From the NCBI GenBank assembly GCA_963702845.1, contig OY969763.1, forward strand, positions 4,960,001-5,024,000: a stretch of DNA of 64,000 nt. The letters are read 5' to 3'. Shown here in pieces: positions 17,101 through 20,100 of this stretch; position 1 is the stretch's first letter, and each line of letters begins with the position of its first letter. The position numbers are program-made. Source of the stretch: an uncultured Verrucomicrobiae bacterium. GTDB lineage: Bacteria > Verrucomicrobiota > Verrucomicrobiia > Limisphaerales > Palsa-1400.

Positions 17101-20100
17101 GATGAATCGACGGCCAGTGACAAAATGCCACCTTTTACCGCAAAACCAATTCCCGTCCAATTCGTGCCATCCCACTTCGCGACGTTTGTCGCGAGCAGAT
17201 TCACATTTGTGAAAGCTCCACCTGCGTAGAGATTGCCTGATGCATCTATCGCCAGGGCTCGAACCGTTCCGCCGAGTCCGGCACCAACGTTTGACCATCG
17301 CGTGCCGTCCCATTTGGCGACGCCCAGAGAAATCGCGGTTGCAAGTGCATTGAACATGCCAGCAGCGTAGGTGATACTGTTTTTCGAATCCTGAAGAGTT
17401 GCATAAACGGTACCGTCAGCGCCGGGCGGCACGCCAAGTGATACCCAACGGTTATCAGTAAAAGTTTCCCCGTGAATCGCTAACGCGGCAAAAATCAGGG
17501 TCCCAAACCCTGCAAATATTCCATAATTAGTCTTCATAGAAGTTGCCCAACCGCTGCTCGGGGGATGCCCAATTCTGTAACCCCGTTTCGGGCTTGTCAA
17601 ACAAAGCCAACGCCAAAAATGCGCGGTTAGTCGTCGCGCCGAGGCATATTATTTCAAAACTCGAATCCGAAACCGGAACGTCCGGTTCGCATTAAAGCAC
17701 GAAACTTATGGACTAAACACCTGTCCTGGCGGTCGCCGCTGCCGCTTGTGTGATAGCGCGCTTCGCCATAATGGCTTCGATGATCTTTTTGCCGAGATCA
17801 GGTTTTTCGACGAGTGCGAGGCGCGCGGCGTCTTTGCCTTGGCCAATCAGTTCGCCACCGAACTGGAGCCATGCGCCTTTCTTATCAACGGCGCCGGTGG
17901 CGATGCCCATGTCGATGATGCTGCCTTCTTTGTTGATGCCGTGGTTGTAAATGATTTCAAATTCGGCTTCGGCAAAGGGCGGCGCGACTTTGTTTTTCAC
18001 GATCTTCACTTTGACGCAGTTACCGATGGCGTTGCCGGCGGAGTCTTTCAAGGTGTCGCGACGGCGGATGTCGATGCGGACGCTGGCGTAAAATTTCAGC
18101 GCTTTACCGCCGGGGGTCGTTTCGGGATTGCCGAACATGACGCCGACTTTTTCGCGGAGTTGGTTGGTGAAAATGCAGGTCGTTTTGGACTTGTTCAGGA
18201 TGGCGGTGAGTTTGCGGAGCGCCTGGCTCATGAGGCGGGCTTGCATTCCCATGGTGGCCATGCCCATTTCGCCTTCGAGTTCGGCTTTCGGGACAAGCGC
18301 GGCGACGGAGTCGATGACGATGACGTCGAGGGCGTTGGAGCGCGCGAGCGTTTCGCAAATGGTCAGGGCTTCTTCACCGCTGTCCGGTTGCGAGACGAGC
18401 AGGTCGTCGAGATTGACGCCGAGTTTTTTGGCATAAGCGGGGTCGAGCGCGTGTTCGGCGTCGATGAAGGCTGCCAGACCGCCGGACTTTTGTGCGTTGG
18501 CGATGACGTGGAGCATCAAGGTCGTTTTACCGGAGGATTCAGGGCCGAAGATTTCAACGACGCGGCCGCGGGGCAAACCGCCGACACCGAGGGCGAGATC
18601 AACGGCGAGTGCGCCGGTGGGGATGACTTCGATGCCGACTTTGGAGCGGGCATCGCCGAGGCGCATGATGCTGCCTTCACCGTAGGCTTTGGTGATGGTG
18701 GAAATGGCGGCGTCGAGATCGCGTTGGCGCGCGGCAGAAATTTTGCCGTCATTCGCTTTTTCGACGGCTTTCGGGTCCGCTTTTGATTCAGGCGCAGGCG
18801 CAGCCGGTTTTTCAGTTTTTGGAGGCATAAAAATCGAGTGTTAAAGTCCTAAATTGTTGAGTGAATTTGAGCCGATGCGTTGGTGTTAGTCAATGCGGTT
18901 CGGTAGAAACAAAAGGCGGCTACTAAACAATCTTTTATTTTACCGTTAGGAACCGTTAGGAAGTGATAGGAACCGATATCCGCACCGCAAAATAAAGGAT
19001 TCCTTTTTTTAGGGTTAAAGAAGTTTAAAGAAGTTTTATAAAGTTTAATTCCGGGTCCCCGGGATGCTGGTTCCAAGCTGCAGAATTCGGGATCGAAGTT
19101 TGATAACCTCCGAAGACGTGAAACCGTCAGCGCGGGACCAAACGAATGGAACGCGCGAAAAAAAGGATTCTTTTTTTGGTGTCCAGAGGTGTCCAGAACT
19201 GTCCGCAGGTGTCCGGAGGTGTCCGTCGGAGGATTTTCAAACGTGCAACTCATCCGAACACGCGGTTTTTGTCGCGTATCAATTTTATGATTTTCAATTT
19301 TCATGAGGTGAGCTTAGCAAGGTCACTTGGACAAAGGCTGTCCAAGTGAAAATATTTGTGATTTTTTTGTTAGTAGTTGGTGGGGAGAGGGATTCGTTGC
19401 AAAAATGGGAATTTTGGGAAGGATGGGAAGTAGGAAAAGCGCAGATTTCGGAGATGGAAAATGGAAAACCTGCGCGGGGGAGTGACTGCGGGTGTCAACT
19501 TAACCGAACGGGCTTGTTCGTGTATTAAAATAATGCGAACCTCTGTCGTGTAATAATTAGCCAATATCTGAAATGTTAGGCAAAATGCGCGAGTTACTCA
19601 CTACGTTGCTATTATTTTTGGGCATATGCCTCAGTTGTTTCAGCAACGGGCATCGGATGACGCCCGACATCACTGTCGAGAATAACACAACGAATCGTCT
19701 GGATTGGATGCACATCCAGTGGGGCAATGACGAAGTGCAAGTGGGCAGCATACCACCCGGCAACGCTGCGATCTTTATCCGTTACAGTCTTCGAACGGCT
19801 GCGAATACGAACCTGGCGGTGATCAGCTTTATCCATGAAGACACACCGGGGTTGAGTTGGAACTCTGGTCGGAACGCTGAGGTGCGAGCGCGACGCGCGC
19901 GTTCGTGGACACACATCCCGGTTGACGTCAGTCCTGTGCTCCAGCTGCATCAGGAGCGTTACCACCTTACGTTTCGGATTCTAAGCGTCACAAACGCAGT
20001 TGTTCTGGTGGAAAAAAACGAGTCCAAATCGCTTGGCGAGGTTTCGTTCGAGATGACAACAGAACTCCGCGACAAGGTCATTGCCAACCCACGAGACGAC

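Follow-up and report, generated by a model that had tools for sequence, protein, structure and literature searches.

A 25-bp palindrome recurs within promoters of fixed architecture in a genome that lacks LexA, and across the order Limisphaerales the palindrome is distributed together with a protein of the WYL family and a small gene. By analogy with characterised WYL regulators, we consider it probable that the palindrome is the site of a homodimeric wHTH-3HB-WYL-WCX activator that senses damage and stands in for the missing LexA. If so, a WYL-type, LexA-independent damage response would be present in a fourth lineage (Limisphaerales, Verrucomicrobiota) after Actinobacteria, Caulobacter and Moraxellaceae, and a predicted site, promoter rule and regulon would be supplied for this order.

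In the window, by which we mean the whole 64,000-nt stretch analysed, a perfect copy of the palindrome, CACTTGGACA-GCCTT-TGTCCAAGTG, occupies positions 19324-19348 on the minus strand, with 0.00 copies expected by chance (100 shuffles). The genome was scanned with the 20 fixed bases of CACTTGGACA-N5-TGTCCAAGTG, giving 22 matches without mismatch, five with one, one each with two, three and four, and 14 with five. The same palindrome reversed but not complemented, which served as the control, had no match at up to three mismatches, three at four and 17 at five. The 29 sites with three mismatches or fewer are real, and the lone four-mismatch match, at position 3901788, is at the level of chance. 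The first-pass annotation, which had counted 29 sites at up to four mismatches and 28 at up to two against an empty reversed control, was therefore right in substance: we find 28 at up to two and 29 at up to three, and the control is empty to three mismatches. The inner core of the palindrome is GGACA-N5-TGTCC, that is, GAC-N7-GTC. Homology between the sites is localised, as had been claimed for about -10 to +50 nt; in our alignments it extends from about -20 to +35 around the palindrome.

The 28 canonical sites align as a single oriented module made up of an A/T tract, the palindrome, 7 nt and the hexamer TAnnnT, which begins 8 nt past the palindrome in 24 of them. The TG of an extended -10 (-15/-14) is found in 25 of the 28. 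The 10 nt upstream of the palindrome have an A/T fraction of 0.89, compared with 0.46 for the genome, and this tract is possibly an UP-like element. Promoter alignment revealed no -35 box at any of the 28 sites, and the predicted -35 to -30 positions coincide with the last arm base and the spacer of the palindrome. Counting from a start site that is itself predicted from the -10 hexamer, the palindrome would span -44 to -20 and be centred on -32, with the proximal GTC at -28 to -26. The first ATG follows the -10 by 5-8 nt at 13 of the 28 sites and by 9-11 nt at a further eight. The spacer is asymmetric, starting with GC (occasionally GT, or C) on the side distal to the -10, and the same asymmetry is seen in other families when sites are oriented by the -10 alone (16 of 121 order genomes; control, none of 121). 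The fixed arrangement of palindrome and -10 also recurs in other families of the order. As at activator-type promoters, the site lies at a fixed distance from the -10, over the -35 position, and is not accompanied by a -35 hexamer. Because the spacing to the -10 is fixed, the -35 is missing and the spacer asymmetry points toward the -10, the geometry resembles, by analogy, a DriD/PafBC-type activator site rather than a repressor operator. One site only is shifted, that of the WYL regulator's own gene, which lies 6 bp nearer the -10.

The palindrome could also be part of a dispersed repeat, either a portable promoter or a hairpin/terminator, that has come to precede an accidental set of genes without any common regulator. 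That 22 of the 29 copies are identical over all 25 bp, spacer included, is unusual for a regulon and would suit such a repeat, as would the mosaics of shared repeats that make up the leaders behind the sites and the fact that the copies in two other genomes, G026 and G437, belong to multi-copy elements (a Pfam search with the repeated G026 genes gave no match). An empty-site comparison of the region upstream of thrS, aimed at the ends of a possible promoter cassette, found no DNA-level synteny with G007, G029 or G030. Against a repeat, each of the 28 canonical copies points at a gene start and has the -10 at its fixed place, homology ends about 20 nt upstream, and the motif is kept at one single-copy gene across many families, which speaks for selection on the site rather than recent copying. 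We therefore regard this explanation as very improbable. On the plus strand the palindrome resembles a terminator according to a terminator scan, but we rejected a terminator function since the copies stand at gene 5' ends and the run after the hairpin opens with four A's, making it a poor terminator.

Pfam and PHROGs searches identified the genes behind the sites as recA, ligA, imuB (IMS) followed by dnaE2, mfd and thrS, together with DUF3631, a ceramidase-like gene, an amidohydrolase and four WYL+WCX genes. This confirms the set named in the first-pass annotation (recA, ligA, imuA-imuB-dnaE2, mfd, thrS, DUF3631 and four WYL-WCX genes). Its six terminase operons hold in part: TerL is encoded at five loci (L011-L014 and L028) but not at L010, where the first gene is homologous to the terminase loci and the second ORF has no match other than a PHROG of unknown function. 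The S24 domain of LexA (PF00717) had no match in this genome, G000, among six candidates scored. Reproducing the earlier counts, it is missing from all three genomes of the genus, namely G000 (a single contig, near complete), G014 (73% complete) and G015 (67%), against 18 of 28 other family genomes with a match. The shared oriented module, the gene set and the lack of an S24/LexA match together support the regulon that had been proposed, one of LexA-independent damage and mobile-element induction.

The core repair genes are less certain members of this regulon, because 120-500 nt, including a mini-ORF or repeats, separate recA, ligA, thrS, imuA and mfd from their sites, and recA has a conserved candidate promoter of its own close to the gene. 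An earlier caveat about the distance of recA and ligA thus stands, and the case for such genes is weaker than for those fused directly to the promoter; WYL paralogues, TerS-TerL pairs and a DUF3631 gene stand immediately behind it. The palindrome was not found upstream of recA in G007, G026 or G030. Outside the genus its targets are mostly small uncharacterised proteins and mobile or defence genes, and a Y-family polymerase and a DEAD helicase are among those seen in other families. Most of the case for a DNA-repair connection comes from a single genus, with isolated examples elsewhere.

The best candidate for the protein that binds the palindrome, again by analogy, is a 330-aa wHTH-WYL-WCX protein encoded at G000:C1:3081007-3081996; in G000 and G007 its gene lies outside any proteasome cluster. 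It matches WYL (PF13280, E 3.1e-20) and WCX (PF25583, E 1.6e-14), and three paralogues in the genome also match both domains. An AF2 model places a winged HTH at the N-terminus (helices 15-27, 34-41 and 45-57, wing 63-74) and a three-helix bundle before the WYL domain (helices 88-122), so the predicted domain order is that of class-A WYL proteins, wHTH-3HB-WYL-WCX. Profile comparison ranked PafBC first (E 5e-23), then DriD (2e-12) and CapW/BrxR (1.5e-7 to 1.3e-4). In Foldseek the model aligned over its full length with DriD (8tp8; E 2e-15, 325 columns), PafBC came next, and CapW/BrxR were weaker (E 4e-10 to 7e-9); TM-scores are low (0.35) because the domains are arranged differently. Using phmmer, residues 45-319 align with PafB 45-318. 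The N-terminal 100 aa had no PDB match even at E 10, and the profile aligned the N-terminus solely to the PafC-like half of an Arthrobacter fusion protein. Within the recognition helix (45-57), K46 is nearly invariant and R50, four residues on, is invariant; K/R46 and R50 are retained in all five paralogues in the alignment. The WYL-domain arginines R172, R182, R205, R209 and R215 are invariant, but in most host orthologues a phenylalanine takes the place of the WYL-motif tyrosine, which counts against the activator reading.

The closest structural match, DriD of Caulobacter crescentus, is a WYL activator of an SOS-independent damage response with the same wHTH-3HB-WYL-WCX order and a similar length (327 versus 330 aa). 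Over the -35 position of promoters that have no -35, DriD occupies the sequence ATACGAC-N7-GTCGTAT, with constant spacing to the -10 (PMC13004042), and its Arg37 and Arg41 contact guanines of the GTC triplet (PMC10853764). The system described here shares with it a palindromic GAC-N7-GTC site over a missing -35 at a fixed distance to the -10, and a small protein as a main target (didA in Caulobacter); K46 and R50, with the same spacing of four, are candidate counterparts of its two arginines. The two proteins are, however, about 18% identical, the residue that would correspond to the first arginine is a lysine, and the DriD site has other outer bases and an A/T-rich spacer where ours starts with GC. 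Caulobacter also keeps LexA, which the host genome here lacks, and unlike that of DriD the regulon proposed here reaches recA, imuA-imuB-dnaE2 and terminase genes. PafBC, which acts by sigma adaptation in mycobacteria and other Actinobacteria, is the best sequence-profile match and regulates recA and other repair genes. Its promoters likewise have a canonical -10, no -35 and a GTC element at -23 to -28, which is recognised by R46 and R50 of PafB (PMC8635444), to be compared with K46 and R50 of the 330-aa protein. PafBC proper is a heterodimer or a fusion of two paralogues acting at a single half-site, whereas the regulator here is a single gene and the site a full palindrome; Actinobacteria, moreover, keep LexA, unlike this genus.

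The same WYL protein might instead bind the palindrome and repress, as CapW and BrxR do, blocking extended -10 promoters that are active in themselves until a damage signal releases them. The TG present at most sites could make a -35 dispensable, and CapW and BrxR, which repress CBASS and BREX, are structural relatives of the 330-aa protein by the Foldseek and profile scores above, belong to the same fold class, and share palindromic promoter sites and a link to defence genes. One of the WYL paralogues, L002, stands beside DndC/DndD-like genes, a context known for WYL repressors. A repressor, however, does not require a distance to the -10 that is exact to the base pair, as it is in most of the canonical sites and in other families, and a spacer asymmetry tied to the -10 side is expected where protein and polymerase bind jointly. 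The protein is also nearer to the activators DriD and PafBC in sequence and structure, CapW and BrxR act beside their own systems whereas the sites here are dispersed genome-wide with activator-like geometry, and the lone shifted site belongs to the regulator's own gene. Repression thus appears unlikely, and activation is the reading that we follow below.

Replacement of LexA by a WYL regulator is already published for Moraxellaceae, where DdaA, with the site CGWCA-N5-TGWCG, took over the role; before the takeover it controlled just a few genes (PMC12392091). The DdaA motif and our GGACA-N5-TGTCC differ at the outer base only, and its regulon in Moraxellaceae/Acinetobacter likewise combines recA with anti-phage or mobile genes under a WYL activator, as proposed here. 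DdaA is reported to activate aciT, a division inhibitor. DdaA sites, by contrast, are located roughly 50 bp before the start site where ours are predicted to centre on -32, its authors argue against a PafBC mode of action, and its hosts belong to a phylum other than Verrucomicrobiota. Compared with the LexA/SOS regulon itself, the genes involved in this genus are similar (recA, imuA-imuB-dnaE2 and mobile-element genes), but the S24 peptidase gene is absent, the site replaces the -35 rather than overlapping a complete promoter, and derepression would give way to activation.

We reason by analogy with these systems about DNA binding, the inducer and whether regulation is positive or negative. 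Single-stranded DNA arising from damage would bind the WYL domain and free the two winged-helix domains, which would then read the GAC/GTC triplets of both half-sites. The activator dimer would occupy the place of the -35, centred at about -32, and together with the extended -10 and the A/T tract would direct the housekeeping RNA polymerase to start 6-7 nt past the -10, often directly at an ATG, yielding leaderless mRNA. Mobile and defence genes that carry the palindrome promoter would in this way be switched on by the damage signal of the host. At the regulator's own gene, where the site is shifted toward the -10, the outcome would be autorepression.

Orthologues of the regulator with 55-86% identity are found in 28 of 31 family genomes and 110 of 121 order genomes, and identity is 48% or less outside the order. 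The exact motif core, TTGGACA-N5-TGTCCAA, occurs in 25 of the 31 family genomes (17 of 30 had been reported previously, using stricter flanks), in 14 of 118 other order genomes and in two of 300 genomes from the rest of the phylum. An exact copy of the core is missing from most regulator-bearing genomes of the order, and since almost all genomes of the order have the regulator, its co-occurrence with the exact motif is uninformative. The steadiest target of the motif order-wide is an uncharacterised helical protein of 65-82 aa, newly recognised here and present in 108 of the 121 genomes. Regulator and small protein occur together in 105 genomes, and eight genomes, from at least seven families, have neither (Fisher p 2e-7, a value that ignores phylogeny). 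Of 29 small-protein loci, 24 carry the motif (up to three mismatches) at a constant distance from the gene; chance alone would give about 0.06 matches per locus. We infer that, across Limisphaerales, the core unit pairs the regulator with a single gene for a small helical protein, preceded by a palindrome promoter.

These distributions also bear on whether some other protein binds the palindrome, be it a non-WYL regulator or the longer WYL paralogues of mobile elements, with the host WYL gene merely being regulated. The link between the host WYL protein and the palindrome is one proposed by analogy, and the exact core is rare in the order beyond the family although most of those genomes carry the regulator. 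Among the WYL orthologues whose upstream regions were checked (10 plus-strand loci outside the genus and two within it), those outside the genus have no site, the best matches having 5-6 mismatches. In G332 the small gene has the motif (one mismatch), yet a search of the order genomes for orthologues found no WYL orthologue there. Set against this, the motif follows the same half-site and spacing pattern as the sites of three WYL regulators studied by experiment, and G026, with 22 sites, has the host-type WYL gene only and no paralogue. The regulator and its best-conserved target have been lost jointly, and degenerate motif copies are kept upstream of the small gene. A binder other than the host WYL protein therefore seems rather improbable to us.

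Taking the host WYL protein as the activator, we suggest tentatively, as a possibility that is more doubtful than the activator itself, that, after this genus lost LexA, its SOS genes joined an older WYL/small-protein circuit found throughout the order through the spread of a portable promoter cassette, as opposed to sites evolving gradually. Three parts would make up this cassette: the 45-bp activator/-10 module, a leaderless mini-ORF, and decamer arrays carrying A7-GGAATCC-T7 inverted repeats. Orphan TerS-TerL pairs would have acquired it too, so that damage would likewise induce DNA-packaging genes resident in the host; the small protein is a candidate damage checkpoint effector like DidA or AciT. 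Should these readings hold, this would be the second independent apparent takeover of SOS genes by a WYL activator once LexA was gone, making LexA-to-WYL takeovers a comparative question. The uncharacterised small protein, found in about 90% of the sampled order genomes, would be the oldest target of the circuit, and mobile and defence genes (WYL paralogues, terminase pairs and DUF3631) would be borrowing the site of the host regulator.

The recA locus of the window contains one such leader, read on the minus strand. An A/T-rich tract (19349..19360) directly precedes the palindrome, which is followed by an extended -10 at 19311..19319 (TG at 19319-19318 and TAAGCT at 19316-19311). Six nucleotides past the -10 is the ATG of a 151-aa ORF (18849..19304), a predicted leaderless start; a Pfam search assigned the ORF to no family, and it is probably a decayed, repeat-filled copy of the MKIEISEVF mini-ORF, an intact ORF of this type being present at the equivalent position in G015. 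The gene for recA itself lies at 17713..18828 (minus strand; PF00154, E 2.8e-130), with orthologues 84-96% identical in all five relatives searched, and 495 nt separate its ATG from the near end of the palindrome. In comparison with G015, the middle 350 nt or so of this interval are not conserved, whereas the proximal 90 nt or so are. The conserved part includes a candidate recA promoter, TTGACT-17 nt-TCAAAT (18865..18893, minus strand); a TTGACT-17-(G/T)CAAAT arrangement also stands upstream of recA in G007, a member of another genus. Between palindrome and gene lies a composite repeat (19158..19229) formed by an A7-GAATCC-T7 inverted repeat (19158-19177) and five tandem 10-nt units containing GGACA (19178-19229), which recurs in the leaders behind the sites of ligA, thrS, 2882216 and 3667630 and in three other places. 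A second A-run/GGAATCC/T-run inverted repeat, flanked by other short tandem repeats, is located at 18980..19001, and the 63-nt module to which it belongs is 92-98% identical in four other leaders.

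The 25-bp palindrome CACTTGGACA-N5-TGTCCAAGTG has a single perfect copy in the window, at 19324-19348, and no copy was found in 100 shuffles. When the entire 6.03-Mb contig was scanned with the 20 fixed bases, 22 sites matched without mismatch, five with one, and one each with two and with three, while the control, the reversed, non-complemented pattern, gave no match at any of these levels. At four mismatches there was one match against three in the control, and at five there were 14 against 17. These control counts indicate that the roughly 29 sites proposed in the first-pass annotation are real, all of them at three mismatches or fewer, but that the lone match added by its limit of four is at chance level.

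The 5-nt spacer is conserved as GCCTT and is asymmetric, and every copy of the palindrome therefore has a direction. Anatomy was scored on 28 oriented sites, omitting the four-mismatch match and the site of the regulator gene itself, which is atypical. The A/T fraction in the 10 nt upstream of the palindrome is 89%, compared with 46% for the genome, TAnnnT begins 8 nt past the palindrome in 24 of the 28 sites, and TG is found at -15/-14 in 25. The first ATG follows the -10 after 5-8 nt at 13 sites, 9-11 nt at eight and 16-22 nt at six, and one site had no ATG within the stretch examined. Taking the -10 as -12 to -7, the palindrome is predicted to span -44 to -20 with its centre at -32 and its proximal GTC at -28 to -26; positions -35 to -30 are then occupied by the last base of the distal arm and the spacer, so that there is no -35 box. 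A consensus scan flagged the palindrome plus A/T tract (window 19323-19349, plus strand) as terminator-like; this flag lies on the strand opposite the promoter, and its tail starts with four A's. BLAST comparison of the 29 loci bore out the earlier statement that homology is confined to the module, from about 20 nt upstream to 35 nt downstream of the palindrome, apart from a few longer repeats. We consider it highly improbable that the sites are simply copies of a dispersed repeat that are not regulated together.

The core GGACA-N5-TGTCC can be written as GAC-N7-GTC, which invites comparison with the sites of published WYL activators. DriD recognises ATACGAC-N7-GTCGTAT, and in a '-35-optimised' didA probe TTGACA substitutes bases in the middle of this site (PMC13004042); the printed probe sequences place its centre near -31, against near -32 predicted here. 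Guanines of the GTC triplet are contacted by Arg37 and Arg41 of DriD (PMC10853764), and R46 and R50 of PafB read GTC in a -23 to -28 element of promoters that have a -10 and lack a -35 (PMC8635444). DdaA binds CGWCA-N5-TGWCG at sites about 50 bp upstream of the start (PMC12392091). The core described here is nearest in sequence to the DdaA site, and its predicted position is nearest to those of DriD and PafBC.

The host genome has exactly four WYL genes (PF13280). Three encode WYL+WCX paralogues of 358-391 aa that are fused directly to the promoter (loci L002, L009 and L022), and the fourth, at 3081007-3081996 of the contig, encodes a 330-aa protein that is the candidate binder. Its orthologue, at 68-86% identity, is present in 28 of the 31 family genomes, including all 18 of high quality; across Limisphaerales it was matched in 110 of 121 sampled genomes, mostly at 55-78% identity, and homologues elsewhere in the phylum reach at most 48%. 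Its close relatives are from Verrucomicrobiota, including Limisphaerales and Pedosphaera MAGs. A profile built from orthologues and paralogues matches PafBC (E 5e-23), PafC and DriD (E 2e-12), and the repressors CapW and BrxR more weakly. The AlphaFold model (mean pLDDT 73) comprises a winged helix (helices 15-27, 34-41 and 45-57, wing 63-74), a helical bundle, and WYL and WCX domains; in a Foldseek search DriD is the top match (E 2e-15 over 325 aligned columns), ahead of PafBC and then CapW/BrxR. The predicted recognition helix has an almost invariant K46 and an invariant R50, and K/R46 and R50 are kept in the paralogues. By analogy with DriD, DdaA and PafBC, we think it fairly likely that the palindrome is the site of this conserved regulator acting as an activator. 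The same protein may instead repress, which the extended -10 would also allow, but we regard this reading as unlikely. For the activator, its own gene would be a special case: the site there has two mismatches and a different spacer, the only -10-like hexamer, TAGGAT, lies 2 nt past the palindrome instead of 8, and the related genome G015 has the same arrangement. Such a shifted site would give autorepression.

The exact core TTGGACA-N5-TGTCCAA was found in 25 of 31 family genomes, in 14 of 118 sampled genomes of the order outside the family and in 2 of 300 of the phylum outside the order, with reversed controls near zero in all three samples. Family genomes mostly have 1-5 copies; the host has 23, G015 17 and another relative, G026, 22. 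The motif with TAnnnT at the fixed distance occurs in 16 of 121 order genomes versus 0 of 121 controls, and in almost every one of these hits the spacer position farthest from the -10 is a G. Twenty loci from other genera of the family show the same module, with an ATG mostly 5-8 nt past the -10. Targets in other families include a Y-family polymerase (G405), a DEAD helicase with a DUF3631 protein (G422) and an integrase (G444). In other genera of the host's own family the motif also stands in front of stand-alone WYL-domain proteins of about 115 aa without an HTH (L030, L035 and L047, from G004, G011 and G025), the G004 example lying next to an Eco57I/MmeI-type methylase-endonuclease (type IIG restriction-modification). 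The 22 G026 sites (L180-L194) form three repeated promoter-plus-gene families, one of them starting MKVKYTFKDFDEQFQ, whose genes had no Pfam match, and in G437 five of seven identical motif copies lie 90 nt from contig ends; the sites in these two genomes are multi-copy elements carrying the promoter.

One target is a small protein of 65-82 aa, found behind the motif in the host (site 561158) and in 14 other genomes from eight other families of the order. Its sequence follows QMEL...RAxWWFxQMRxVVDxA...WxPxP..RPEQ; it matches no Pfam family and is predicted to form a single long helix with a disordered tail; among its 328 homologue clusters all those named are 'hypothetical', and those with an organism are from Verrucomicrobia. 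Of the 121 order genomes, 108 carry it, almost all in one copy. Regulator and small protein occur together in 105 genomes and are both absent from eight, with five having the regulator only and three the small protein only (Fisher p 2e-7, counting genomes as independent despite their relatedness). The eight genomes without both span at least seven families, and three are at least 93% complete; two of the five with the regulator only have merely a homologue of at most 42% identity. In 29 of 30 returned loci, the host's own being excluded, TGGACA-N5-TGTCCA was sought upstream of the small gene, and 24 had it at three mismatches or fewer (nine with none, and five each with one, two and three), at a near-constant distance and followed by a -10-like hexamer; we estimate a chance expectation of about 0.06 matches per locus. 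Among the indirect evidence connecting regulator and motif this is the strongest, and binding of the palindrome by a different protein seems to us improbable. The copies with one to three mismatches at the small gene also show that exact-match scans underestimate the motif's spread.

Pfam and PHROGs checks upheld the assignment of sites to recA, ligA, imuA-imuB-dnaE2, mfd, thrS, the DUF3631 gene and the WYL genes. The DUF3631 gene is fused directly to the promoter. A leaderless mini-ORF or repeat-rich leader of 120-500 nt separates the promoter from recA, ligA, imuA-imuB-dnaE2, mfd and thrS, and likewise from a ceramidase-like gene, an amidohydrolase and PSCyt/DUF1553 genes. Six orphan terminase operons had also been proposed; a TerS-like gene fused directly to the promoter and followed by TerL is present at five loci (L011-L014 and L028), but L010, like L003 and L017, has only a TerS-like first gene. 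Four of the five pairs have housekeeping neighbours (purH, a bioB-like gene, DUF1501 and nuoH), with no further phage genes in the 6 kb read, and one of the five loci also has a portal gene. The paralogue in L002 (118641-126165) is followed by PAPS-reductase (DndC-like) and SbcC/AAA_23 (DndD-like) genes, a defence-like cluster with a WYL regulator. The L009 and L022 paralogue loci (1698097 and 4315887) share 98% identity across at least 929 nt and, as judged from sequence, either arose by recent duplication or represent one element present twice. In L001 (36051-43575) ligA is split into three overlapping frames of 187, 205 and 417 aa. Similar breaks affect PSD1 and DUF1501 genes, and dnaE2 has a 257-aa ORF in front of it (loci L021, L007); this pattern looks like assembly indel errors rather than true pseudogenes. 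The assembly is a single contig with 89.8% marker completeness.

In keeping with the stated lack of LexA, PF00717 (S24/LexA) matches nothing in the host, nor in the genus's other two genomes, which are incomplete; of the 28 remaining family genomes, 18 have a match. WYL regulons that work without LexA, and even one that has taken its place, are already published, so that the present case would be new in its phylum rather than in kind. The DdaA regulon comprises recA, further repair genes and defence systems, and before LexA loss DdaA controlled few genes (PMC12392091); DdaA also activates the division inhibitor aciT (PMC13010146). Verrucomicrobia are not mentioned in the DdaA paper (PMC12392091), and among the literature matches listed no title or abstract described such a regulon in Verrucomicrobiota. 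Nor did we find descriptions of the small conserved target, of 45-bp modules nearly identical across one genome, of the mosaic leaders or of orphan terminase pairs behind a damage promoter. Two of the main weaknesses of reading this as a damage regulon are that repair genes belong to it largely in one genus and that they are a long way from the site.

In the window recA (17713-18828, minus strand; PF00154, E 2.8e-130) starts 495 nt downstream of the palindrome. The promoter is kept 455 nt upstream of recA in G015, and the reported absence outside the genus holds in G007, G026 and G030, which have no copy within 800 nt; in G014, of the same genus, 293 nt upstream of recA were covered. G014 has two recA matches (C443 and C80; 84% and 96% identity to the host), and its bin may mix two strains or species. 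Conservation between the host and G015 covers the promoter module and the ~90 nt immediately preceding recA but not the ~350 nt in the middle. Because this proximal part is conserved and contains TTGACT-17-TCAAAT, an arrangement also seen in G007, recA probably has its own promoter, to which the WYL-type promoter would add damage-induced read-through. The G015 leader (L095) has an intact mini-ORF starting MKIEISEVF, one of a leaderless family of 78-80 aa that travels with the promoter and also precedes ligA (L001, 5742-5981) and an 803-aa unknown gene (L015, 1545-1778); the host recA leader instead has a repeat-filled 151-aa ORF without a Pfam match. Such mosaic leaders suggest a portable cassette. 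Composite repeats, each an A7-GGAATCC-T7 inverted repeat adjoining an array of some five 10-nt units of the GGACACCTnn or TGTCACCTTC type, lie at 19158-19229 and 18980-19001 of the window and near 41767, 2882699, 3305545, 3668140, 2831943, 4887552 and 5555448 of the host contig. Five of eight copies are in leaders behind palindrome promoters (the recA, ligA, thrS, ceramidase and PSCyt loci), and the units contain GAC/GTC with helical phasing.
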